Source of the DNA: Methanococcus maripaludis
GTDB taxonomy: Archaea; AGJL01; Methanococci; Methanococcales; Methanococcaceae
Direction of reading: 5' to 3'
NCBI RefSeq assembly: GCF_002945325.1
Contig: NZ_CP026606.1
Span: 810,001-842,000 of the forward strand
DNA length: 32,000 bases
The notes below the pieces were generated by a model. It ran no database searches. It was not told the origin of the DNA and worked only from the letters and a program-made list of their open reading frames with translations. The number at the start of each line of letters is the position of its first letter. The first letter of the stretch is position 1. The translations under genes and the position numbers were made by a program. Positions 2,163 to 18,779 of this stretch are shown here, piece by piece.

Positions 2163-2180
2163 AATACCGCTCCATGCGTA

Positions 2181-2393
2181 TTACCCCTCTTTTTTAAATT
2201 TTAACTGATCTTTGAGTTGTAATGCTACTCTTGGAGGGTCTTCTTCAGTTTTTTCTTTTAAAATGTAAACAATGACCTTATGATCCACAAGATCTGAAAA
2301 CGGATTGGGGTGTATTCTTCCACCGCCACCTTGTTTCTTGACTACTGCTTCGTACTTGATCAGAACGTCTTCATCATTCGGATGTTGAATAAT
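2181..2393 (-). CDS. possible small ORF with no canonical start codon (about 70 aa; IIQHPNDEDVLIKYEAVVKKQGGGGRIHPNPFSDLVDHKVIVYILKEKTEEDPPRVALQLKDQLKFKKEG)
   Basis: My own translation. The frame is open from 2399 to the TAA at 2181-2183 and has no ATG/GTG/TTG. A strong GGTGAGGTGA Shine-Dalgarno-like run (2396-2405, minus strand) sits just before ATT ATT at 2393-2388. It is first in the mcm-direction operon. Confidence 0.25.
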   Translation of the reverse strand: MIQHPNDEDVLIKYEAVVKKQGGGGRIHPNPFSDLVDHKVIVYILKEKTEEDPPRVALQLKDQLKFKKEG

Positions 2394-2418
2394 TTCACCT
2401 CACCAGTTGTACACATAT

Positions 2419-2432
2419 CCACAATATTGTGG
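2419..2432. promoter_or_regulatory. perfect 14-bp palindrome CCACAATATTGTGG in the divergent control region
   Basis: Read directly. Lies between the minus-strand mcm operon and the plus-strand wHTH gene. Further palindromes follow: CGCAAATTTGCG (2470-2481) and TGACCAT-N12-ATGGTCA (2532-2557). Confidence 0.35.
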
Positions 2433-2566
2433 ACAATAATAACTTAACTTAATTATTATAAATAATTTACGCAAATTTGCGGATATAACTAAAATAGTTG
2501 TCATTACAAAATATAGTTAAATATACAAAATTGACCATATTAGCAAAATAATGGTCAGAGGATACT

Positions 2567-2869
2567 ATGTTATTAAAACTGATTGCAAAAACACACGCTT
2601 CTGAAATAATAAAATCTCTTGAAAAAAACGATGAATTACACTTTGGGGGCATTTGTAAATACGTTGAAGGCCATAAAAACAGCATTAACCGAATTTTGCA
2701 GGAACTCTACGATGAAGGAATAGTTGAAAAACGGGAAGAAAATTATTCTCCTAAAATATCAAAATCGTATTATAAACTAACAGATTTCGGAAAAGAAGTA
2801 TCGAAAATCATCGACCAGCTCGAAGTTTTGGAGCATAGATATTACGAAGCTAAAAATAAACCTCTTTAA
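2567..2869 (+). CDS. small winged-helix (wHTH) DNA-binding protein, paralogue 1 (100 aa)
   Basis: ORF track, with GAGG RBS before the ATG. The pattern ...ELHFGGICKYVEG.HKNSINRILQELYDEGIVEKREE...YYKLTDFGKEV fits helix-turn-helix + wing (ArsR/PadR/MarR-like). About 40% identical by hand alignment to the 3536-3838 product. Confidence 0.75.
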   Translation: MLLKLIAKTHASEIIKSLEKNDELHFGGICKYVEGHKNSINRILQELYDEGIVEKREENYSPKISKSYYKLTDFGKEVSKIIDQLEVLEHRYYEAKNKPL

Positions 2870-3178
2870 AAAAATATTATTAACATTTATTTTGTAAGTA
2901 CTTACGAAATCATTTTTAGTTTAAAAAAAGTTCAAGGTTTCTTTTTTCTTAACCTGTTTTCATTTATATATTAAACCTAAAATGTAATCAAAAGTCATTA
3001 TCAAAAACAGTCTTTTTTCTTTTTATTTATTTTATTTCGTATATACAGAATTATCTAATAATCTGATTTTGTATATACGAAATCGTTTAAGTAATTCTTG
3101 CAAAAATAGGATTTGGTATTATTTTTTAGCATGTTTTGTATGAATAATTTATTTTGTATATACAAAATAATTGAAAAA
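2852..3178. repeat. noncoding repeat block A (about 327 bp), near-identical to block B at a +996 bp offset
   Basis: Direct comparison: 2911-3178 versus 3907-4174 align without indels, with about 6 substitutions. Contains a TTTATATA box (2963-2970), T-runs, and palindromes of the TTTTGTATATACAAAA family at 2890-2909, 3035-3050, 3067-3082 and 3153-3168. Confidence 0.9.
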
Positions 3179-3228
3179 TTAATAAAAAAATAATCATTTG
3201 AATCAGAATGAGTTGTAATATTATTCTA

Positions 3229-3535
3229 AAAAATAAACTCTTTTAAAAAATAATACTCAATTTTATTTTAGGTAGGCACCTCAAATCCAAATAGATAAAA
3301 AATTATACTTAATCTTTTTTTCATGATTTAAAATTGAATATAAATAAAATCTATATTTGTAGATTAATGTAATGTTTTTAGATTGCCAAAACCAATAATT
3401 AATTGGGCCATTAAATAATTTGAGGTACCACTAATTCCAAGGATTTTAATTAAGGGTACCTTTTATTTATTTTTAAAAATCCAGTAAGTTATTAATCAGT
3501 ATGATTTCATAATTAATTTATATGAAAATGCTTAA
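3229..3535. repeat. noncoding module X1, homologous to X2 (6334-6593)
   Basis: Shared anchors: AAAAATAAAC(C)TCTTT(T)AAA...TTATTTTA, GGGCCAT..A(T/G)ATAATTT...GTACCA.CTAATT. Internal inverted repeat GGCACCTCAAAT (3275-3286) / ATTTGAGGTACC (3418-3429). A TTTCATA-N9-TATGAAA inverted repeat (3504-3526) overlaps the likely promoter of the next gene. Confidence 0.7.
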
Positions 3536-3838
3536 TTGGGCGATAATGTGATTTTAAAAATGATTAATAAAAAGCACGTTAAAGAAATATTATATCTATT
3601 AAATAGTGTTGAGGAACTTTATTTTGCGGAAATATGTAATAATATCCCTGAAGCACACAAAGGAAGTATTAATCGGACGTTGCAGGAATTATATGATTTT
3701 AAAATGGTTTCAAAAAGGGAAGAAGGAACTGCTAAACTTTCAAAAACATTTTATTCGATTACAGATCTTGGAAAGGAATCATTAAAGTTTTACGAACTTG
3801 AAAAAGAAGTGGAAACCAAGTACAATATAACAGAATAA
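3536..3838 (+). CDS. small winged-helix (wHTH) DNA-binding protein, paralogue 2 (100 aa, TTG start)
   Basis: ORF track. Same architecture as paralogue 1 (HKGSINRTLQELYD...SKREEG...FYSITDLGKE). Confidence 0.7.
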   Translation: MGDNVILKMINKKHVKEILYLLNSVEELYFAEICNNIPEAHKGSINRTLQELYDFKMVSKREEGTAKLSKTFYSITDLGKESLKFYELEKEVETKYNITE

Positions 3839-3847
3839 TACTTTATT

Positions 3848-4205
3848 AAAAATAAACCTCTTTAAAGAAATAATACTAATAACTATTTTGTAGAGCTATA
3901 CAAAATCATTTTTAGTTTAAAAAAAGTTCAAGGTTTCTTTTTTCTTAACCTGTTTTCATTTATATATTAAACTTAAAATGTAATCAAAAGTCATTATCAA
4001 AAACAGCCTTTTTTCTTTTTATTTATTTTATTTCGCATATACAGAATTATCTAATAATCTGATTTTGTATATACAAAATCGTTTAAGTAATTCTTGCAAA
4101 AATAGGATTTAGTATTATTTTTTAGCATGTTTTGTATGAATAATTTATTTTGTATATACAGAATAATTGAAAAAAGGATTTTGTATATACTGAATTTTAA
4201 AAAAG
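3848..4205. repeat. noncoding repeat block B (about 358 bp), copy of block A plus one extra palindrome
   Basis: See block A. Palindrome-family sites at 3886-3905, 4031-4046, 4063-4078 (perfect), 4148-4163 and 4179-4194. Confidence 0.9.
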
Positions 4206-4285
4206 TTTAGTTTATTCTGTGGAGTAATTCAAAACTGGATCTGTTGAAAAACGTATTTTTTGAATTGTTGTAGGGAAAAACGAGC

Positions 4286-5947
4286 TTATTTTAATAATTT
4301 ATTTTTTAAAATATCTCTTTTAAAAAACATTAAATTTCTAAAAAGGAGCTGTTTTGCATATGGATCTTTTTCATCACAATTAATATCTGCAGGGAAATAT
4401 AAATCTGATTTTAAAAGCAATGCGTTAATATACGCTTCCAAAATCAATGTTCGAGGATCTTTTAATTCCACTAAAGAATTTTTAGCATCCATTAAATATT
4501 TCAAACCCATATGTTCTAGTCCTAATTTGGAGTAACATTCATAAACATGGCGAAGGGTCTGAATATATGCGTATAACTCACCAGAATTTCGATAATAGGA
4601 TTCTAACTTAAAATTTATGGTCAAAGCATGGCAATAATAACCAATACGGAAAAAGTACTCTGAATAATTTGGTAAAATACAGTATTCTGAATTATTGTTC
4701 ATATTTTTTGCAACAACCAATGCTTTATCCAATATTGGTTTAGCTTCAATATATCTCTTAGTTTCCAAATAGGATGTTGAAATGGTAATGTAAAACGGCA
4801 GTTGAAATGCGTATATATGTTTTAAAACTTCTTTGTCAGTATTTTGACTTTTTAACTCATTGATTAGTAGTTTAATATGATCTAAGGCACCTAAGCAGAT
4901 TTTTTCTACTTGGGTATGCTTTCCAATTTTTAGATTTTTTTGTGCATAAAATTCCAAGGCACAAAGACGTTCTATAATATTTTCAGAAAAAAGTGCTTTT
5001 AAACTGTAATTCTCACTTAAATCCCATTCACCAACATTTCTCAAAAATTGAGAAATAACATAGTTTTTAAGCCTACTTTCAACATTTTTTGACCATATTT
5101 TTATTTTGATTTTCCACTCATTATTTTTGAAACTTAAATCGGTATATCCTCCGATATTCTCGGAATATAATTCCCAAATTGTTTTTACAAATTCATTGGT
5201 ATCCATAAAAACTTCATGAAAATCATAACTCTTTAAAAATTCTTTTTTAGAAACGTCTGATTTAGAATGGTTTACAACGGCTATTTTCTTTTCTAGATTA
5301 CTACATTTTTTAAAAATTGGGTTTATGTCATAAAAATCAGAAAAACTGTAACCCATAAAAATCAAACTATCATCATTGTATAACATGTCTTCCAAGACTT
5401 TTGCACGTATTTCTAAATTATTCTGGTTTGCAACGTTTTTTATCGTGTGTTTTAATGAATCTACGTTAGAAATGCAGCCGTGAATTTTGTAAATTTTCAA
5501 AATATTTTCGTCATTTAAAGAATTTTCCAGATCTTTTTCAGTTCTATATACTTTATAATCCCTATTTTCGACCATTCCTTCATCGATCATGGCTTTTTCT
5601 ATTAGTTCATCAAAATTTGTAGTATATATGGATCCTAGAAAACCCTGTTTTGCTAATTTTGCCATTAAAACATGATTTGAATTTGGAATTCCACAGTCAT
5701 AAACTTTCAAAAGCTCAGCCGATTCATTATTTAAAAATTCCATGTAAACTTCAAACGCTATGTCTTTTTTTAGTATTCTTTCAGCATCTTCTTGATTAAC
5801 CATTTTTAATAGTATCTCTTTGATAAACTCGTTAACTGAAGGAAGGCCTGAATCATAAGAGATGCCCGAACCTACGAAAAAAGAAAGTTGGCCTTTTGAC
5901 ATACTTCTAAAATCAAATTTTTCTAAAATTTCGTTTAAGTTTTCCAT
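4286..5947 (-). CDS. SIR2-family (SIR2_2 / defence-associated sirtuin-like) N-terminal domain fused to a TPR-like helical-repeat C-terminal domain (553 aa)
   Basis: ORF track. Motifs in the order seen in ThsA-type SIR2 domains: LSFFVGSGISYDSGLPS, IYTTNFDELIEKA, KIYKIHGCIS (candidate catalytic His), LIFMGYSFSDFYD. The C-terminal about 270 aa is helical and repeat-like (e.g. EFYAQKNLKIGKH..., YIEAKPILDKALVVAKN..., YECYSKLGLEHMGLKYLMDAKN). Confidence 0.75.
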   Translation of the reverse strand: MENLNEILEKFDFRSMSKGQLSFFVGSGISYDSGLPSVNEFIKEILLKMVNQEDAERILKKDIAFEVYMEFLNNESAELLKVYDCGIPNSNHVLMAKLAKQGFLGSIYTTNFDELIEKAMIDEGMVENRDYKVYRTEKDLENSLNDENILKIYKIHGCISNVDSLKHTIKNVANQNNLEIRAKVLEDMLYNDDSLIFMGYSFSDFYDINPIFKKCSNLEKKIAVVNHSKSDVSKKEFLKSYDFHEVFMDTNEFVKTIWELYSENIGGYTDLSFKNNEWKIKIKIWSKNVESRLKNYVISQFLRNVGEWDLSENYSLKALFSENIIERLCALEFYAQKNLKIGKHTQVEKICLGALDHIKLLINELKSQNTDKEVLKHIYAFQLPFYITISTSYLETKRYIEAKPILDKALVVAKNMNNNSEYCILPNYSEYFFRIGYYCHALTINFKLESYYRNSGELYAYIQTLRHVYECYSKLGLEHMGLKYLMDAKNSLVELKDPRTLILEAYINALLLKSDLYFPADINCDEKDPYAKQLLFRNLMFFKRDILKNKLLK

Positions 5948-5953
5948 AATATC

Positions 5954-6154
5954 TTACAAAATATCCAAAATACGATTTATTCCATTAAAAAGCATATCAA
6001 TTGCACCATCAGGATCATTCGATGCTACTTTTATAAATTTTAAGGTAAATAATGATAAAAAAATCAGAGCAAACCCCATTAATATTCCCAAAATCGGGTG
6101 TAATTCTCCTTTTTTAGACCTAATCAAATTTTTAACTAAATTTAAAAGAATCAA
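5954..6154 (-). CDS. small single-pass membrane protein (66 aa, TTG start), co-operonic with the SIR2-TPR gene
   Basis: ORF track. Hydrophobic segment HPILGILMGFALIFLSLFTL. Its stop lies 6 nt before the SIR2 start codon. Preceded by the GGGGGCGAA leader and an A/T box. The overlapping plus-strand ORF 5862-6170 looks like a low-complexity antisense shadow. Confidence 0.5.
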   Translation of the reverse strand: MILLNLVKNLIRSKKGELHPILGILMGFALIFLSLFTLKFIKVASNDPDGAIDMLFNGINRILDIL

Positions 6155-6225
6155 CCTATTCGCCCCCTAAATTTCGATATAATTATATGGTTGAATTTAA
6201 AATATATTAACTAATCGATTTTGAA
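6155..6225 (-). promoter_or_regulatory. diverged fourth copy of the shared promoter/leader cassette (drives small-TM + SIR2-TPR)
   Basis: On the minus strand it shares TTCAAAATC (distal), TAATTATAT (A/T box) and GGGGGCGAA (leader) with the cassette upstream of the OLD gene, in the same order and with similar spacing. Confidence 0.45.
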
Positions 6226-6246
6226 TTTGAAAAGAAAGGGCGATAA

Positions 6247-6324
6247 ACCTTTTATGAATTAGAATCAGCTTTTGAAGAGTTAAAAGCAGATCAGAAAATA
6301 GTATACCAAATCGTTAAAGAATAA
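6247..6324 (+). pseudogene. 3' remnant of a third wHTH paralogue (…TFYELESAFEELKADQKIVYQIVKE*)
   Basis: My own translation. The frame is open only from 6247 and has no start codon. FYELE...E matches the C-terminus of paralogue 2 (KFYELEKEVE). It is followed by the same AATAATACTTT..AAAAATAAACCTCTTTAAAGAA 3' flank as paralogue 2. Confidence 0.5.
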
Positions 6325-6333
6325 TACTTTTTT

Positions 6334-6593
6334 AAAAATAAACCTCTTTAAAGAATATTACTCAAGATTATTTTATGGACGGTACATGAAACTCCCATTA
6401 ATTAAAAAAATCCATTAAGTTTATTTTTTAATCATATTTTTATTTAAATACTAAACCAGCGGTTTTTTGAAAAAAGTAATCTTATCCACTTAACTATTTA
6501 GAATATTTGGGGCCATATTAGATAATTTCGTGTACCATCTAATTTTAAAAAATCTTATTTTATGTGCCATGAAATAATTTAAAGAAATGGGTA
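6334..6593. repeat. noncoding module X2, homologous to X1
   Basis: Inverted repeat GGTACATGAAAC (6381-6392) / ATTTCGTGTACC (6525-6536), spaced 132 nt versus 131 nt in X1. See findings. Confidence 0.7.
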
Positions 6594-6700
6594 AAAAATA
6601 GGACTTAGTATTATTTTTTAGTATGTTTTGTATGAATAATTTATTTTGTATATACAGAATAATTGAACTGGGGATTTTGTATATACAGAATTTTTGAAAT
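6594..6700. repeat. partial repeat block C (3' 107 bp of block B)
   Basis: AAAAATAGGA.TTAGTATTATTTTTTAG.ATGTTTTGTATGAATAATTTATTTTGTATATACAGAATAATTGAA...GGATTTTGTATATAC.GAATTTT matches 4100-4205. Palindrome sites at 6644-6659 and 6675-6690. Confidence 0.85.
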
Positions 6701-6705
6701 AGAAC

Positions 6706-8463
6706 TTATTTAAGTTGAAAAGAATACATTTGATCGGTTATGATAATAACATCTGGTTCATCTTCCTTTTTTTTGTTCACGCGCATCTCATAAGTCTTTT
6801 TTTGGAATTCATCATATAATTTTAAGAATTTATCGTATTGTTCTGAAGTTAATTGTGTTTTTTTATGGGTTCCTGCAATATTCAAAAATTTGTTTTTTCT
6901 GATTTGATCTAACTCAAAATTTACTCCGTTATGCGGATTTGTTACGTCATTATCCCCTAATTTGTATAATTCAAGCAAATAATTTAAATTCTCTGAAAAA
7001 TTGTCTTTTTCCGAAAATAAATACTCCATTAAGAAATAAATTACACTGTTTTCAACTACCAAATGATCATTAAAATCGAAACCATCACTACCATAGAGTT
7101 CTTTAATTTTTTTAAATAACAAATAAGACGAAAAATTAAAAAAATCGTCAGTGTCGTGTATTTTATTTATAAATAAATCGTAGTTGCATTGGCTAAGTAC
7201 AAACAATACGTTAAGAAAATAATCCTTTCCGAGATCTGAATCAATAATCCCCTTTAATATCTCCTCTATTTCAACAGATAATGCTGATCCAAAAGTTGTT
7301 TCTAAAAATTTTGGAGATTTTAATGCATTTACTGCAATTAATATCATTTCTCGGTAAATGAATAGTAACCTACGTCTTTGAAATTCCTCAAAAATTTGTT
7401 TTTTGGATAAATATACTATAGTCCTATACTTATCAAGAAATTGTCTAACATCGATTCCGTCATTGATACTCCAGTTTATATCTCTTTTTTTGACAATATC
7501 ACTAATTAAGTGCATATTTTTAATTATATCACGAGTATAGTCTTCATTATGGTTGATATTTGGATTTTTTAAAAGGCCATAATAAAAAGTAGCAAAATAA
7601 CAAGGTAACTTTACATAAGTTTGTAAATCATTTGTTTTTGAGTATTCAACATATAATTTACTTTCAAAATCTTCAAATTTTTTATGAGTTTCTTCAAGTA
7701 AATATTTAAAAACCTCCTTATCTCGACTATCTGCAGTTTTTCTGAATAAAAGATCTAAATATTGTAGGGGATATTTTGAAAAATGGTTTTCATTTTTTCC
7801 AAAAAATCCCAATTTAATCTTTGAAAGATATTCTTTGGTATCTTCAAATTTAATTTCATCCAATACATTTTTTACAGTATTTTCGGGTTTCATAAACTTT
7901 ATAATTTCATCGATATAAAAAAATAAAGCAATAAAGTTAGAAACGAGCACCATTAATCCAAAGAATACTATAAAAGAACTTAATAAATTAGTTGAAGGTA
8001 GAAATGCCCCGATAATTGAACTAAACCCTAAAGATAAAATTATTAAAAATAAATAAGCTTTAAAAAAACTTTTATTCATAAATAGGTCTAAAATACGGGT
8101 TGAATAATTATTCGAAGTTGAATTTATTGTTGCAACTGAAAACGCGACAATAAATGCACCCAATATTGATATTCCCGAACTTGCTGTTTTAAAAAGATTT
8201 TCAATATTATTGCTTGAAATATCTGCAGATACAGGCAGATAAAAATAAATTAAAAATGAAATTAAGGAAGATAAACCTAAAATTTTTTTCAGTTTTGGGC
8301 ATTGTTCTTTAATATATTTGATATATGGCTTTATTTTGGGATCAATATTCTCTTTATTGCGCCAATATTTAACAATAAGAAACATTGCGATTAAAAAGAG
8401 CGAATATACTTTAAACATATCCATATAATTCACGAAAGAATTTATCAAACTTAAAAACCCCAT
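6706..8463 (-). CDS. multi-pass membrane protein (about 5 TM in the first 190 aa) with a large helical cytoplasmic C-terminal domain (585 aa); N-terminus possibly DUF2254-like
   Basis: ORF track. Hydrophobic segments by eye. The stretch ATINSTSNNYSTRILDLFMNKSFFKAYLFLIILSLGF resembles the (Q)xxxxxS(P/T)R(I/L)L motif I associate with DUF2254 membrane proteins (unverified). Preceded by promoter cassette copy 1. Confidence 0.6.
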   Translation of the reverse strand: MGFLSLINSFVNYMDMFKVYSLFLIAMFLIVKYWRNKENIDPKIKPYIKYIKEQCPKLKKILGLSSLISFLIYFYLPVSADISSNNIENLFKTASSGISILGAFIVAFSVATINSTSNNYSTRILDLFMNKSFFKAYLFLIILSLGFSSIIGAFLPSTNLLSSFIVFFGLMVLVSNFIALFFYIDEIIKFMKPENTVKNVLDEIKFEDTKEYLSKIKLGFFGKNENHFSKYPLQYLDLLFRKTADSRDKEVFKYLLEETHKKFEDFESKLYVEYSKTNDLQTYVKLPCYFATFYYGLLKNPNINHNEDYTRDIIKNMHLISDIVKKRDINWSINDGIDVRQFLDKYRTIVYLSKKQIFEEFQRRRLLFIYREMILIAVNALKSPKFLETTFGSALSVEIEEILKGIIDSDLGKDYFLNVLFVLSQCNYDLFINKIHDTDDFFNFSSYLLFKKIKELYGSDGFDFNDHLVVENSVIYFLMEYLFSEKDNFSENLNYLLELYKLGDNDVTNPHNGVNFELDQIRKNKFLNIAGTHKKTQLTSEQYDKFLKLYDEFQKKTYEMRVNKKKEDEPDVIIITDQMYSFQLK

Positions 8464-8470
8464 TCACATT

Positions 8471-8530
8471 TAAAATATAATTACATTAAAATAGCCCCAA
8501 CTTAAATATTAAATTTATGATTTTGATTAA
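8471..8530 (-). promoter_or_regulatory. shared promoter/leader cassette, copy 1
   Basis: TAAAATATAATTACATTAAAATAGCCCCAACTTAAATATTAAATTTATGATTTTGATTAAAT. About 95% identical to copy 3. Contains two A/T boxes on the minus strand (TAATTATATTTTA and TTTAATATTTA). Confidence 0.6.
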
Positions 8531-8546
8531 ATAGTGGGGTGGGAAT

Positions 8547-9491
8547 TTGCCTAGCTTTTCACAACGAAACGGCTACAAAGAGCTGAATGAAGACTTATTT
8601 TATGAATGTATGCCTGAAAGTCTTAAAACCAGAATTTGGAATTTTATTCATGAAAATTTTTTAAAATACCAGACTTCGGATTTTTTAAAAGTAGTATGTG
8701 ATGAATTTCTAAAATACGATCTTACTGATGAATGGTATATGGATAATCCGATTACAAATGTCATTAAACCAAAATACCGAAGTTTAAAATGGTTTGAAGT
8801 TTATGACCTTGTTGAATTCTGTTTTGATAATATAAAATATCTCGAAAAAGATAAAAAATTAACATATCACATCCATGAATCCTCAATATGGACACAAAAT
8901 GAAAAATGGGCTTATTATCTAAATAAAGGATTTGTTCAAAAACAAGACTCCAGGGGACTTGCTTATTTAGAATATCCGTTTGAAAAATATCTCAAAGAAA
9001 GATTAAAACGATATTCAGTTCTTTTTAATACATTAATGGAAAAAGAAAGAGCTTCCTATCGACTTATCGAAAATAACATAGTTCCGATAACAAATACGGA
9101 AGAAATAAACGAAATTAAAACTGCTTTAAACCCTCCTGAAAAATATAAATTTGTCGGAGACCACCTAAAAAAGGCTTTAGAACTTTATTCGAACAAAGAA
9201 AAGCCAGATTATGAAAATTCAATAAAAGAATCCATTAGTGCTCTTGAATCCCTAGCTAAAATTAGATTAAATAATGAAAAAGGAACTTTGGGTAGGTTAC
9301 TTCCACAATTGGGATTGCATGAAGACTTCGAACTTGGAATTAAAAAACTTTACAGCTGGACTTCTGATGATAAAGGTGGAATTAGACATGGTAAAAAAGG
9401 AGATACTGGAAGTTATGAAGCTGAAGCCCGATATATGCTTGTTACGTGTTCAACACTGTCAAATTATTTAATTTCGAAGCTTGAAAAATAA
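8547..9491 (+). CDS. AbiJ-like abortive-infection protein (AbiJ N-terminal-domain-4-like + C-terminal HEPN-like domain), 314 aa, TTG start
   Basis: ORF track. N-terminus MPSFSQRNGY...MPESLKTRIWNFIHE matches the FSxRxGY...LRNxLWN signature. The middle and C-terminus (YRLIENNIVPITNTEEINEIKTAL, HLKKALELYSNKEKPDYENSIKESISALESLAKI, LYSWTSDDKGGIRHG, ARYMLVTCSTLSNYL) match the conserved blocks I recall for this family. Confidence 0.6.
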   Translation: MPSFSQRNGYKELNEDLFYECMPESLKTRIWNFIHENFLKYQTSDFLKVVCDEFLKYDLTDEWYMDNPITNVIKPKYRSLKWFEVYDLVEFCFDNIKYLEKDKKLTYHIHESSIWTQNEKWAYYLNKGFVQKQDSRGLAYLEYPFEKYLKERLKRYSVLFNTLMEKERASYRLIENNIVPITNTEEINEIKTALNPPEKYKFVGDHLKKALELYSNKEKPDYENSIKESISALESLAKIRLNNEKGTLGRLLPQLGLHEDFELGIKKLYSWTSDDKGGIRHGKKGDTGSYEAEARYMLVTCSTLSNYLISKLEK

Positions 9492-9494
9492 ATT

Positions 9495-10175
9495 TTAAAC
9501 TATTATTTCTTTTTTATAATAATTATGATAACAAAAAAATGCAGAAACCGCAATTCCGGAAAAGTGAACCATTCCTCCTCCACAATTTGATACTGAAAAA
9601 TCGATCAGAAAAGTTAGAACTGAAAAAAACAATGCAAACATAAAGCTTGACCAAAATCCATTACTTTTTGAAAACTTAGTCTTATTAAATACAAAATTAC
9701 CCATAAAATAATAAGAAATATACATAAATCCATAAACAACTCCTGAAATACCTATTCCGGAATAATTTATCGGTTTTTCATTAATAATCCAGTATGCAGT
9801 GAATGAGATTAATGGAATCAGCCATATGGACATTAATAAAAATAAATATGTTTTAAGATTTAGTTTATATTCTACAATATATCCAAAAATAATCAAATAC
9901 AGCATGTTATATTTTAAATGATCCATATCACGGTGTAAAAAGATTGATGTTATGATTTGCCAGGGTTTTTGAAATAATTCTGAAGGAAAAAAGGCATAAT
10001 TTCTGTAAAACTCGGAATTTTTAATCCACAGGTCTGCACTGTTGTAGTACTGAAGTTCGGGATTTATTTTGATAAAAAATACTGCCATGCAAATAAAAAA
10101 TAATAACATGGTAAAATAAGGGATTTTTAAAAAAAATTTATATTTTTCAAATATGTGCATGGAAAGAACCCCCAT
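9495..10175 (-). CDS. rhomboid-family intramembrane serine protease (226 aa)
   Basis: ORF track. WQIITSIFLHRDMDHLKYNMLYLIIFGYIVE (WxxxT..F.H....H...NM), GISGVVYGF (GxSG catalytic Ser) and VHFSGIAVSAF (catalytic His helix). About 6 hydrophobic helices. Its ATG overlaps the stop of the upstream gene (TAATG at 10173-10177). Confidence 0.85.
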   Translation of the reverse strand: MGVLSMHIFEKYKFFLKIPYFTMLLFFICMAVFFIKINPELQYYNSADLWIKNSEFYRNYAFFPSELFQKPWQIITSIFLHRDMDHLKYNMLYLIIFGYIVEYKLNLKTYLFLLMSIWLIPLISFTAYWIINEKPINYSGIGISGVVYGFMYISYYFMGNFVFNKTKFSKSNGFWSSFMFALFFSVLTFLIDFSVSNCGGGMVHFSGIAVSAFFCYHNYYKKEIIV

Positions 10176-11320
10176 TAAATAAATTGAAGATCTTCAAATT
10201 CTTCTTTTATTTTTTCAGCATATTGCTCTATTTCAGTAAATTCCAATGATAAACTTCCCAATATTGCTTTTTCTTCGTCATAATACCTACCTGCATGTAT
10301 AATTGTCATAAAATATTCTTCAGAATAATCTTCTCCATTAATGTCTTCGTATTTTATGGTTAATTTATACCACGGGTCATTTATTGGATAACTTATGGCC
10401 GATTCTGTGATAATTACTCCCTCATATATCCTTAAAATTTCGTCAGGTAGTGGAATTATTAGATATTTTTTATCATAGGGTGGCAAAACCTCATAATTAC
10501 GCCTAATTTTGGTTTGAACTGATGAACTACTTAAATATCCATTAATATCCGATTCTACCCGTAAATAACCAGAATTATTATCTCCTGGGGTATATTCTAC
10601 GTTTAAATCATTTTTAACTTTAATGCGGTCTGTAGCAGTGTTATAATTTACATCAAATATTAATTTAATATTTTTTGAAAATCCCGTCCCCAGATTATAA
10701 ATTTCGAAATAAGGAATCCGTATATTTCCGCAGATTAAATTATCAGAACTCAGACTAAGTTTATTTTCTCGTTTTTTCCACGTTAACTCATATTTCTTAT
10801 CAGTATTGCCCGGCACACACCTTATTTCAAAATAATTATTTAATGGGGCTAATTTTGGGCGTTGTTGTAATTTTCTCTGTCGTTCCATTTCTTTTCTCTG
10901 ATTAATTGTTTCATAAACCAGATACGCAGTTAGTGTAACCACCCCAATTCCAGAAAACCAGTCAGCAATACTCCCCCAGTACCCCAAATTTAAAAATTGA
11001 GATCCGAAAACGGCCCAAATGAACAATAATGCTCCGGAAGACATTATTAATTGTCCAGCTTCCTTTTGGAAATTTTTTAAGTATTCATTTTGAAACATAA
11101 AATAAATAACAATCCCAAGCATTAACCAAAGTAAATAAAATACCTTTGTGAAGCCATCCAATCCATTCATCCAGGGCATTGATTCAAAGTATGCAAACAA
11201 TACACATATAATAAAAATTAAGAAAAATACGATTAAAACGTAAATTCCGAAAATATCTATTTTTTTGAGTTTTTCGTATAATGACTTAAGTTTAAATTTT
11301 AAATTAGATTTTTTGTCCAA
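10175..11320 (-). CDS. membrane protein: 4 N-terminal TM helices + about 240-aa beta-rich soluble C-terminal domain of unknown family (381 aa, TTG start)
   Basis: ORF track. Hydrophobic segments at about aa 22-45, 57-76, 91-109 and 121-137. Then a basic linker (QRKEMERQRKLQQRPK) and a domain rich in short alternating strands. Preceded by promoter cassette copy 2. Confidence 0.65.
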   Translation of the reverse strand: MDKKSNLKFKLKSLYEKLKKIDIFGIYVLIVFFLIFIICVLFAYFESMPWMNGLDGFTKVFYLLWLMLGIVIYFMFQNEYLKNFQKEAGQLIMSSGALLFIWAVFGSQFLNLGYWGSIADWFSGIGVVTLTAYLVYETINQRKEMERQRKLQQRPKLAPLNNYFEIRCVPGNTDKKYELTWKKRENKLSLSSDNLICGNIRIPYFEIYNLGTGFSKNIKLIFDVNYNTATDRIKVKNDLNVEYTPGDNNSGYLRVESDINGYLSSSSVQTKIRRNYEVLPPYDKKYLIIPLPDEILRIYEGVIITESAISYPINDPWYKLTIKYEDINGEDYSEEYFMTIIHAGRYYDEEKAILGSLSLEFTEIEQYAEKIKEEFEDLQFI

Positions 11321-11337
11321 TAATATCCCGTCCCCTT

Positions 11338-11390
11338 TAAAATATAATTACATTAAAATAGACTCAACATAAATATTAAAGTTATTATTC
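11338..11390 (-). promoter_or_regulatory. shared promoter/leader cassette, copy 2
   Basis: TAAAATATAATTACATTAAAATAGACTCAACATAAATATTAAAGTTATTATTC. About 4 mismatches in 53 bp versus copy 3. Confidence 0.6.
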
Positions 11391-11437
11391 AAAAAATTTA
11401 AAAAAGATAGTAAATACTGATAAATTAAAAATTAACT

Positions 11438-13261
11438 TTATATGTCTAATTTATTGTGTAATTCCTGAATAAAGTTATTATAAACTTCGTATTTTTCCAA
11501 TATTTTCTTTTTGTCATTAATTTCTTTTAGATCTTCAATAACTAGTTCATTTATTTTTTTCTTGTATTCATTAAAATCGTCTGTTGAACCGGATTTCTTC
11601 TCTGTTTTAAACCGTTTTGCATATTCTAAAACTGGCATATCTACAGGTGTTTTAAACCCATCACCCCATATCTCGGATCCGGCATTATCTAAAATATCGG
11701 TTGGAAATAAATCTTCAGTAGTTGCAACATTCTTTTTTAATTTAACTAAATCCAAAATTTCAAAAATATTGTCCATAAATTCGGGATTTTGTTCCTTAAC
11801 ATCTTCAATAACCCGTCTTCCGGCAGTATCTGAATCTAACACTACAAAACCTGGAACTATATCTGTATTAAAAAATTTAACCCATTTTAATACTTCAGGA
11901 GTCCCTCCTGCATCAGTACATCTAACCTCGTTAATAATTTTTTGGTCAAATACCTGTTTTACAAAGGTTTCATAGAGTTTTCTGTCATTGGGGCCCTCAA
12001 ATACAAGGATATTATTGCCCAATATATTTTTTAAAGAAGTTCCTAAGGCTCGGTATATTACTTCTTCTTTTATTGGGAAATTCACGTCGATTTCTTCAAT
12101 AATTGTATTTCCATTTTTTTTAGATACAATAAGGTGATTTTTTAAATCTTTTTTAACCATAAATATGGAATGGGTTGATAAAAATACCACGTTATTTTTG
12201 GAAATATTCAAAAGTTCGTCTCTTAAGTATTCGACGCCACTAGGGTGCAAATGTACTTCCGGTTCATCAATTATTATTACGTTATTTTTCAATGATTCAA
12301 TTTTATTTTGTACTGAAAGATTCAGTAAAATCGACATAAACTGCTTAAAACCATCACTTCTTTCAGTCATTTCCATTTTTCTATATGGTGTGTCTTCATC
12401 ATATGTCAAAACAGTACAGGTCGTACTTTCCAATCTAACTTTTATTTTGATTTTATGTTCAGGCCATAATTGTTGTATGTGTGCCGTAGCTACATCTGAT
12501 AATTTGGATTCATAATTATCCCGAGCACTTTCCTTATTCATTATTTGATCCAATATGGAATTCATATTTTTTTCGTAGCCTGCTAAATAAAAGATATTTT
12601 TCAAAGGTACAGATATATTCGGGTTTTGTTTAAAATTAACCAAATTTATTGGTTGGCCTATCAAATATTTTTCAGAAGATTCCCAAAATATAAATTTAGG
12701 TATTGCTTTTTTTAAATCTTCTAAAACGGCATTTTGAACCAGTTGACTTATTTTTTCTTTTGATATGGATATATAATTTGGAGAATTTTCTGCGGGAACA
12801 TCATTTTTGTTTATTATGTGATTATTACTAGTTGGATTAATCCTATAATCCGATAAATCAGGATACGTAGTCAATAAATTATATGTTACAGCCGTTTCAG
12901 AATTATCCGGCTTTTTTACCAATATTACATTTACCCCAGATATTGAAATAGCACTTGCTAAATTTTTTGGAATAATAGAACTAATTTTAGTTAAAATATT
13001 GATACGATCATCGGAATTAAGCCAAAACTTATAGGTAAACATTATATTTTCATTGTTTTCCTGTGCTTCCATGTTACAATCTTTTACATAATTCAAAGTC
13101 TTTGGTTTATCAAAAACTGAAATCGATTTAAGAATATTACTTTTTCCTGAACCATTTACTCCAAAAAACATTGTATATTTATTATCCGATGTAGGAATTC
13201 TAATTATTTGATCTTTTATGCTTCTAAAATTCTTAATATGTATTTCTTTCAATTCTAACAA
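11438..13261 (-). CDS. OLD-family nuclease (ABC-type ATPase + C-terminal TOPRIM), 607 aa, TTG start
   Basis: ORF track. IKNFRSIK...FFGVNGSGKSNILKSI (Walker A), SDGFKQ (signature-like), VIIIDEPEVHLHPSG (Walker B/D-loop), FLSTHS (H-loop). TOPRIM: NILVFEGPNDRKLYE (Glu) and FVVLDSDTAGRR (DxD). Confidence 0.85.
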   Translation of the reverse strand: MLELKEIHIKNFRSIKDQIIRIPTSDNKYTMFFGVNGSGKSNILKSISVFDKPKTLNYVKDCNMEAQENNENIMFTYKFWLNSDDRINILTKISSIIPKNLASAISISGVNVILVKKPDNSETAVTYNLLTTYPDLSDYRINPTSNNHIINKNDVPAENSPNYISISKEKISQLVQNAVLEDLKKAIPKFIFWESSEKYLIGQPINLVNFKQNPNISVPLKNIFYLAGYEKNMNSILDQIMNKESARDNYESKLSDVATAHIQQLWPEHKIKIKVRLESTTCTVLTYDEDTPYRKMEMTERSDGFKQFMSILLNLSVQNKIESLKNNVIIIDEPEVHLHPSGVEYLRDELLNISKNNVVFLSTHSIFMVKKDLKNHLIVSKKNGNTIIEEIDVNFPIKEEVIYRALGTSLKNILGNNILVFEGPNDRKLYETFVKQVFDQKIINEVRCTDAGGTPEVLKWVKFFNTDIVPGFVVLDSDTAGRRVIEDVKEQNPEFMDNIFEILDLVKLKKNVATTEDLFPTDILDNAGSEIWGDGFKTPVDMPVLEYAKRFKTEKKSGSTDDFNEYKKKINELVIEDLKEINDKKKILEKYEVYNNFIQELHNKLDI

Positions 13262-13284
13262 TGTTTCGCCCCCAATTAAAATCT

Positions 13285-13345
13285 TAAAATATAATTACAT
13301 TAAAATAGACCCAACATAAATATTAAATTTATGATTTTGAATTAA
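13285..13345 (-). promoter_or_regulatory. shared promoter/leader cassette, copy 3
   Basis: TAAAATATAATTACATTAAAATAGACCCAACATAAATATTAAATTTATGATTTTGAATTAAAC, followed on the minus strand by the GGGGGCGAA leader and TTG at 13261. Confidence 0.6.
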
Positions 13346-13366
13346 ACCAAATTAAAAAAAGAATAG

Positions 13367-18360: not shown

Positions 18361-18694
18361 TTAAAACCCCTCACGTAGTTATTGATAGTAATATACTACA
18401 TGAAAGGTTTTTTATTTGAAATATAAATAATTTGTCGGTTAAATCGTGTATAAGTCTGTAAAAACCGTTTTTAAATTCTTAAAAATAGACTTGATATATC
18501 GGACTCAGGATTTTTGAAAATCGATATATCGGACTAGTGAAAAACCATCAAAATCGGTGCCATTGGTAAAAATCCGATATAGTTTGAGGAACTTTTTCGG
18601 GTCCTTTAGATGTAAAATACTGCAAAAAAGCTAAATCTTGTTAAAAACCCACGGTCTTGAAAGAAACCAAAAAAGAGTGCGTTATTTCAAAAAG

Positions 18695-18779
18695 TGGAGG
18701 GAAAGGGATTTGAACCCTCGAACCGCTACCGGATCGGATCTTAAGTCCGACGCCTTTGACCAGGCTTGGCAATCCCTCC
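18695..18779 (-). tRNA. tRNA-Leu (anticodon UAA), 85 nt, long variable arm, no encoded CCA
   Basis: Folded by hand from the reverse complement: GGAGGGA-TT-GCCA AGCCTGGTCAA AGGC-G-TCGGA CT TAA GA TCCGA-TCCGGTAGCGGTTC-GAGGG TTCAAAT CCCTT-TCCCTCC-A. 7-bp acceptor stem, 5-bp anticodon and T stems, TTCAAAT T-loop. Confidence 0.9.

Follow-up and report, generated by a model that had tools for sequence, protein, structure and literature searches.

Is a sirtuin gene that follows a tiny membrane-protein gene at a distance of six nucleotides the effector of a two-gene antiviral system, or does it act on its own behind a gene that is no partner to it? The two genes in question lie in 32,000 nucleotides of Methanococcus maripaludis DNA (contig NZ_CP026606.1, forward-strand positions 810,001 to 842,000; the window hereafter, to which all coordinates not otherwise labelled refer) and encode a 66-residue single-pass membrane protein (5954..6154, minus strand, TTG start) and a 553-residue protein (4286..5947, minus strand, ATG start), in which an N-terminal SIR2_2 sirtuin domain is joined to a C-terminal array of helices resembling tetratricopeptide repeats (TPR). 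A first-pass annotation of this DNA, made from the letters alone, had seen here a candidate module for depleting nicotinamide adenine dinucleotide (NAD+), with the small protein as an unusual sensor or partner. The reading that we favour, and to which we give a probability of roughly 0.68, departs from this on the second point: we see the 553-residue protein as a candidate stand-alone NAD+ hydrolase (NADase) of the SIR2_2-TPR kind, sensor and effector in one, which is carried as cargo in a hypervariable hotspot of an MCM element at tRNA-Leu, behind a small leader gene that is not a dedicated partner.

The enzyme half of the 553-residue protein is an immune-type (SIR2_2) sirtuin that retains both catalytic residues, Asn and His, and not a canonical deacylase. 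The domain takes up residues ~1-265 (5153..5947, minus strand), and all four motifs by which it had been recognised as a defence sirtuin are indeed there (GSGIS, the NAD loop, at 26-30; TTNFD at 109-113; HG at 156-157; GYSFSD at 199-204), on columns that are invariant in two family alignments of 69 and 80 sequences (G26, G28, T109, T110, N111, D113, H156, G157, G199, Y200, S201, S203 and D204). Pfam SIR2_2 (PF13289) scores 56.4 bits against a cut-off of 24.5 (E 4.5e-15), or 59.5 bits in a genome-wide scan, and the gene is single-copy in its own genome. As to the catalytic pair, N111 and H156 both align with the family, and H156 in addition pairs with H146 of KomC, the Kongming NADase and best PDB sequence match (E 4.8e-8, residues 16-221), which is the position altered in the deposited H146N mutant. 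Canonical sirtuin models fall short, with 28.7 bits vs a cut-off of 221 for the CobB-type deacylase of NCBIfam and 19.2 vs 24 for Pfam SIR2 (E 0.0013), and there is no zinc-binding Cys module, C85, C158 and C215 being the only cysteines in residues 1-270 and forming no CxxC pair. Scans with Pfam and PADLOC found no SLOG, HerA, pAgo or STAND module in the protein, nor did Pfam find a P-loop family between the SIR2 domain and the repeats.

The presumed sensor is a diverged TPR-like helical solenoid at residues ~277-546 (4310..5119, minus strand), whose N-terminal edge is marked by two tryptophans of the linker (W278, W285) that are conserved in the family alignments. Since several relatives that phmmer aligns with the protein up to residue ~500 have significant TPR_12 or TPR_1 matches there (E 1e-15 to 1e-75), we take the C-terminal half to be a degenerate TPR array, and the predicted structure, all-helical in this half, agrees with the homology. 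AlphaFold2 was run on the 69-sequence alignment (predicted local distance difference test score, pLDDT, 88.6; predicted template modelling score, pTM, 0.87), in favour of which a single-sequence run (pLDDT 37.7) was discarded; the model gives a Rossmann-type SIR2 domain at residues 1-~265 and, at 277-546, about 14 consecutive helices packed as hairpins (pLDDT >90). When this model was compared with the PDB by Foldseek, the top matches were all antiviral sirtuins (DSR2, KomC, ThsA, the SIR2 protein of SPARSA, and Avs5). Homology and helical model together speak for a TPR-like repeat domain where other systems have SLOG, HerA, pAgo or a very large DSR-type C-terminus, as the first-pass annotation had held.

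That such a fusion is unusual, on the other hand, does not hold, for SIR2-TPR proteins without an NTPase make up a large existing family. An exhaustive phmmer search with the 553-residue protein, covering 1.84 billion cluster representatives, returned 1692 relatives at E<=1e-3 and at least 150 at E<=1e-30, mostly 500-750 residues long; members from outside Methanococcus reach E values down to 1e-43, and in the 80 best relatives Pfam finds SIR2_2 in every one and TPR_12 in 76. In a survey that took one genome per GTDB species, 115 loci were found and 80 kept, which come from Bacteroidota, Chloroflexota, Acidobacteriota, Nitrospirota, Planctomycetota and several archaeal lineages. Clustering of neighbours by BLAST (three genes per side, 76 loci from other genomes) gave no conserved neighbour, the commonest families being a GHKL ATPase and a C-5 DNA methylase (9 and 8 loci) with integrases next, and a Pfam tally over the 148 nearest neighbours counted DNA_methylase six times, Phage_integrase four times and rve (transposase) three times, with no TIR, cyclase or other signalling enzyme recurrent among them. 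Because no neighbour is kept across loci, we read the family as a one-gene module; a SIR2-TPR protein appears to combine sensor and effector in one gene product, as DSR2 does, and by analogy would deplete NAD+. No model of PADLOC v2 or NCBIfam covers the 553-residue protein in full length: PADLOC v2, as had been suggested for this island, yields SIR2-only fragments of the ThsA, Aga/pAgo, PDC-S25/S65 and Dsr1 models and calls no named system. PHROGs has no match for either the 553- or the 66-residue protein, and no NCBIfam model scores above its cut-off. TPR-fused SIR2_2 proteins do appear as a label in a published sirtuin tree (PMC12700824). As an observation apart, about nine of the 76 loci place the SIR2-TPR gene within three genes of a C-5 cytosine methylase and a 700-860-residue GHKL (HATPase_c_3) protein; this restriction-like set (Bacteroidota loci L014, L019, L020, L026, L030, L034, L036, L054 and L089) recurs in Flavobacteriia and Sphingobacteriia.

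What, then, is the small gene in front? That a tiny membrane-protein gene lies 6 nucleotides upstream of the SIR2 gene is confirmed by the positions of the open reading frames (ORFs), its TAA stop at 5954-5956 preceding the SIR2 ATG at 5947, and by one strongly hydrophobic 19-mer in its product (Kyte-Doolittle maximum 2.34). Homologues of 66-67 residues were recovered from the 5.8-billion protein index only, namely P0158 from M. maripaludis C6 (86% identity), P0159 from M. maripaludis assembly GCA_014207325.1 (77%) and P0160 from a Logan contig (68%); in 40 genomes of related species (noise only), the JGI metagenomes and IMG/VR the gene was not found. In three pairwise codon alignments, substitutions at codon positions 1/2/3 number 11/5/26, 14/10/25 and 17/9/34, and because the differences peak at position 3 and are fewest at position 2, the coding frame is placed on the minus strand. 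The TTG start is conserved in three loci and so is a G-rich ribosome-binding site. By these patterns the 66-residue ORF is a real gene, under purifying selection and specific to the element. A plus-strand ORF across the same region (5862-6170, 102 residues), which overlaps the SIR2 gene start and of which a 60-residue equivalent is open in GCA_014207325.1 (locus L091), was considered as a gene and rejected as an antisense shadow of the small gene, whose third codon positions coincide with its own.

A promoter and leader for a transcript of both genes are predicted at 6155..6230 (minus strand), with an AT-rich TATA-like box at ~6196-6210 and, 8 nucleotides before the TTG of the small gene, a GGGGG ribosome-binding site (6163-6167). 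From this arrangement the SIR2 gene would be co-transcribed with the small gene and, since it begins 6 nucleotides away and has no Shine-Dalgarno-like sequence of its own, is probably coupled to it in translation as well. The leader is nearly identical in GCA_014207325.1 (L091). Its proposed relation to a cassette used throughout the island has points on both sides: the leader has exact AATTCAAAATC and GGGGGCGAA-plus-TTG-start blocks in common with that of the ATPase gene of the OLD family (AAA_15 + TOPRIM), yet its overall identity to the cassette is no better than that of shuffled sequence. Over 82 nucleotides the three island genes with the canonical cassette share ~70% pairwise identity, whereas the small-gene leader reaches 44-56% with the three copies (shuffled mean 42%, maximum 56%). 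A relation to the cassette is hence possible but unproven.

The surroundings of the two genes are those of a mobile element. The window is archaeal (MCM, diphthamide synthase and CDC48 are present) and its bases 1 to ~18690 form an accessory island of low GC content that ends at tRNA-Leu and holds genes for AbiJ, an OLD-family ATPase-TOPRIM protein, a rhomboid protein, a DUF2254 membrane protein and winged-helix regulators (PadR-like winged helix-turn-helix, wHTH). The module lies in this accessory island next to the AbiJ and OLD-family genes. Copies of one MCM element, integrated at tRNA-Leu, are present in at least four M. maripaludis assemblies; their ends are almost the same throughout, and the centre holds one of three wholly different cargo sets (compared regions: window 2172-13362, L091 5818-10816, L094 10370-16000, L096 4585-10200). 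The ends of the GCA_014207325.1 element are 96-99% identical to those of the window and its centre is replaced; two more assemblies share the backbone and carry a third cargo set, which includes DUF6414 and a SEC-C-like protein but not the small gene.

It is this comparison that bears most directly on the question whether the two genes form a true system, in which the 66-residue protein would serve the NADase as anchor, gate or inhibitor, or would be an additional effector that disrupts membranes. The 6-nucleotide gap, a single upstream promoter, a SIR2 gene without its own ribosome-binding site and purifying selection on the small gene all speak for such a link. In GCA_014207325.1 (L091/L095), however, the small gene is followed after 8 nucleotides by a gene for an unrelated 193-residue two-pass membrane protein, and on the Logan contig (L092) by 112 non-coding nucleotides up to the contig end; neither locus has a SIR2 gene. 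A block of 82% DNA identity with the other M. maripaludis strain, seen in blastn and by alignment, comprises promoter, small gene and stop (5945..6230, minus strand; 6230-5945 pairs with L091 7928-8215) and ends just past the stop codon of the small gene, where the cargo begins. Because it precedes a different gene in another strain, the small gene is not a dedicated partner. Nor do SIR2-TPR homologues keep it as a conserved sensor or partner: of the 73 loci whose upstream sequence was long enough to tell, none shows a related small ORF for a membrane protein ahead of the SIR2-TPR gene, the small hydrophobic ORFs of any kind that end near the SIR2 start (5/73 loci) being unlike each other and unlike the window peptide, and the closest homologue has a CARF-wHTH gene in that place. 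As a conserved pair, the two-gene unit is therefore largely refuted; the pairing is a local juxtaposition in a cargo hotspot, and we regard a true two-gene system as improbable.

That closest homologue brings in another alternative, namely that the protein is an effector of the Thoeris kind, whose TPR domain would recognise, instead of a viral protein, a small nucleotide signal produced by a TIR or another enzyme. The homologue is found in a genome of the same genus (G001), with an identical copy on a metagenome contig (L001), and is 52% identical over the SIR2 half and 25% over the repeat half; in both proteins the TPR region is strongly degenerate, with no Pfam TPR model above cut-off. It lies 60 nucleotides behind a gene for a 265-residue CARF (HFX_2341_N)-winged-helix protein (L004 6095-13107, that is G001:C1 ~1106000-1113100; likewise on L001), which a ThsB-type TIR gene and two membrane-protein genes adjoin on the opposite strand; a type I restriction-modification system is found downstream. 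The G001 locus may be organised in a signal-regulated, Thoeris-like way, with the SIR2-TPR gene transcribed under the control of a TIR product. Besides these neighbours, a Thoeris-kind effector has on its side a proposal that a TPR domain is the cyclic ADP-ribose receptor of ThsI, the effector of type VII/VIII Thoeris (bioRxiv 10.64898/2025.12.03.692087), and one family member with a weak Pfam TPR-S match. Blastn and tblastn, however, find nothing common to the G001 locus and the window beyond the SIR2-TPR gene itself, and tblastn finds no remnant of the CARF-wHTH, TIR or membrane genes in the window, including the 550-nucleotide gap upstream of the small gene. The genome of the window likewise has no ThsB_TIR match, phmmer detects neither TIR nor CARF homologues in the 80 family loci and, as said, no TIR or cyclase recurs among the 148 nearest neighbours, while the sensor half evolves fast, which fits recognition of a protein better than a conserved pocket for a small molecule. 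To our minds a Thoeris-kind effector is quite unlikely here. Less likely still is a regulatory or housekeeping sirtuin (a deacylase or ADP-ribosyltransferase) whose TPR domain recruits a cellular substrate and which is no immune NADase at all. Weak similarity to the canonical models and the ordinary metabolic neighbours of many family members would fit it, yet the deacylase score is far below its cut-off and the zinc module is missing, just 2 of 61 relatives carry the gene, which in the window is part of the exchangeable cargo of an integrated element and has AbiJ and OLD-family genes as neighbours, and the nearest structural relatives of the protein are all antiviral NADases.

Among the known systems closest to the stand-alone sensor-effector that we favour is DSR2 of Bacillus subtilis (PDB 8wya, 8wy8), which is the best Foldseek match of the model (E 3e-7) and shows the same plan in one polypeptide, an N-terminal SIR2 NADase followed by an all-helical repeat sensor. 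DSR2 works on its own, and a phage protein that binds to it directly switches it on (PMC11850899). The two differ in that DSR2 has ~1000 residues with a MID and a HEAT-like C-terminal domain where the 553-residue protein, an archaeal one, has about seven TPR-like hairpins, and they superpose poorly as wholes (template modelling score 0.36 by query, 0.22 by target) and have no detectable sequence relation outside SIR2; full-length similarity to DSR1/DSR2 (~1000-1260 residues) was not found, the NCBIfam Dsr1 model scoring 16.2 bits vs a cut-off of 1400. KomC (PDB 8zsf, 9v0g), the closest solved SIR2, shares the GxG, TTN(F/Y)D, HG and GYS.SD motifs, but is a bare SIR2 domain of 264 residues that works with KomA, KomB and a nucleotide signal (deoxyinosine triphosphate is present in the deposited complexes), whereas the 553-residue protein carries a TPR domain of its own; among the neighbouring ORFs (those of at least 90 residues plus the 66-residue ORF) a Pfam scan found no Ham1-like or deaminase family as a Kongming partner. 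ThsA (SIR2-SLOG) is also a SIR2_2 NADase, gives the best match from a defence library (PADLOC, E 2.6e-14, residues 6-204) and has structures that Foldseek matches, but the protein studied here has no SLOG domain and its genome no ThsB TIR gene. Avs5 (AVAST type 5, SIR2-STAND-TPR; PDB 9nc9), another Foldseek match, likewise puts a SIR2 effector at its N-terminus and a repeat sensor at its C-terminus; it differs by a STAND/NACHT ATPase, which the 553-residue protein lacks, helical repeats beginning at residue 277. As for SIR2-HerA and SPARSA (SIR2-APAZ + pAgo), no HerA or pAgo gene is among the neighbours and the PADLOC pAgo/Aga match extends over residues 88-220 only. With the SIR2_2-TPR family, finally, the protein shares the order of its two domains and the same invariant residues, including the linker tryptophans, one difference being that the window gene would be expressed behind a small leader gene. 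Taken by analogy, the best-supported reading of these comparisons would be an NADase defence in one SIR2 protein, in which a TPR sensor takes the place of the DSR-type domains.

How such a protein might work can be pictured from the same parallels. We infer NADase activity, trigger and defence phenotype from what DSR2 and other SIR2_2 defences do and from the rapid evolution of the repeats. The N-terminal immune-type sirtuin domain would hydrolyse NAD+ and would be held inactive until a ligand specific to infection, most probably a viral protein, attaches to the TPR-like solenoid; this would then switch the enzyme on, probably via oligomerisation, and the ensuing NAD+ depletion would lead to abortive infection, as in DSR2. 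Several points weigh against this picture. The repeats of the 553-residue protein stay below every Pfam TPR cut-off (TPR_8 E 0.057); the DSR2 match of Foldseek comes from the SIR2 domain plus generic helices (template modelling score ~0.36, root mean square deviation ~30 A), and a DSR2-like mechanism is to be taken as an analogy only. Many family members sit among ordinary genes with no obvious defence genes around, and in the literature that we searched we found no biochemical or phenotypic study of any SIR2-TPR protein. In this strain, moreover, a functional link with the small protein may exist, given the 6-nucleotide spacing and the shared promoter.

Other features of the element concern how cargo may come to lie behind the small gene. 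The module of small gene and SIR2 gene is flanked on both sides by a non-coding block rich in palindromes (repeat family D2), which is found in direct orientation at 4076..4203 (downstream) and at 6572..6699 (upstream), with 85% identity between the copies; as recombination substrates such bracketing blocks are plausible. Palindrome-rich blocks with TTTTGTATATACAAAA-type sites in fact occur three times (2851-3207, 3847-4203 and 6319-6699), two of them bracketing the module, and each has next to it either a cargo module or the gene of a small winged-helix regulator. A 57-nucleotide exact repeat of the 3' part of tRNA-Leu is found in the window (18689-18745) and in L091 (15198-15254), in the other strain beyond the integrase, and is likely the att site that bounds the element. 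On the cargo side, the 193-residue protein of L091 (8213-8794) has two N-terminal membrane helices and matches phrog_26238 (E 7e-10); next to the small-gene slot of that locus (5891-7937) lie divergent genes for a 419-residue FRG-domain protein and a 252/259-residue multi-pass membrane protein, possibly an uncharacterised cargo pair.

A rather doubtful extension of our view would be that promoter and 66-residue gene form a conserved expression slot of M. maripaludis MCM elements, with cargo exchanged past the stop of the leader gene. Exchange would then probably proceed by recombination between the palindrome-rich blocks, translation of the cargo would be coupled to that of the leader gene, and the leader peptide might set the dose of a toxic cargo such as an NADase. 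If true, the slot would be an integron-like device for swapping and expressing cargo in an archaeal mobile element.

As for what the locus means, the claim of a two-gene system of small membrane protein plus SIR2-TPR is corrected, which keeps a false system out of the catalogues. SIR2-TPR proteins without an NTPase form a very large family that none of the searched libraries covers in full length and for which we are aware of no experimental study; they probably represent a minimal one-protein combination of sensor and NADase. From the comparison of strains one sees how an archaeal integrated element keeps its promoter and leader gene in place while the defence cargo behind them is exchanged. 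To our knowledge, nearly all work on NAD+ depletion as an antiviral response has been done in bacteria; with an archaeal member of the family at hand in M. maripaludis, a genetically tractable methanogen, archaeal NAD+ depletion can be put to the test.

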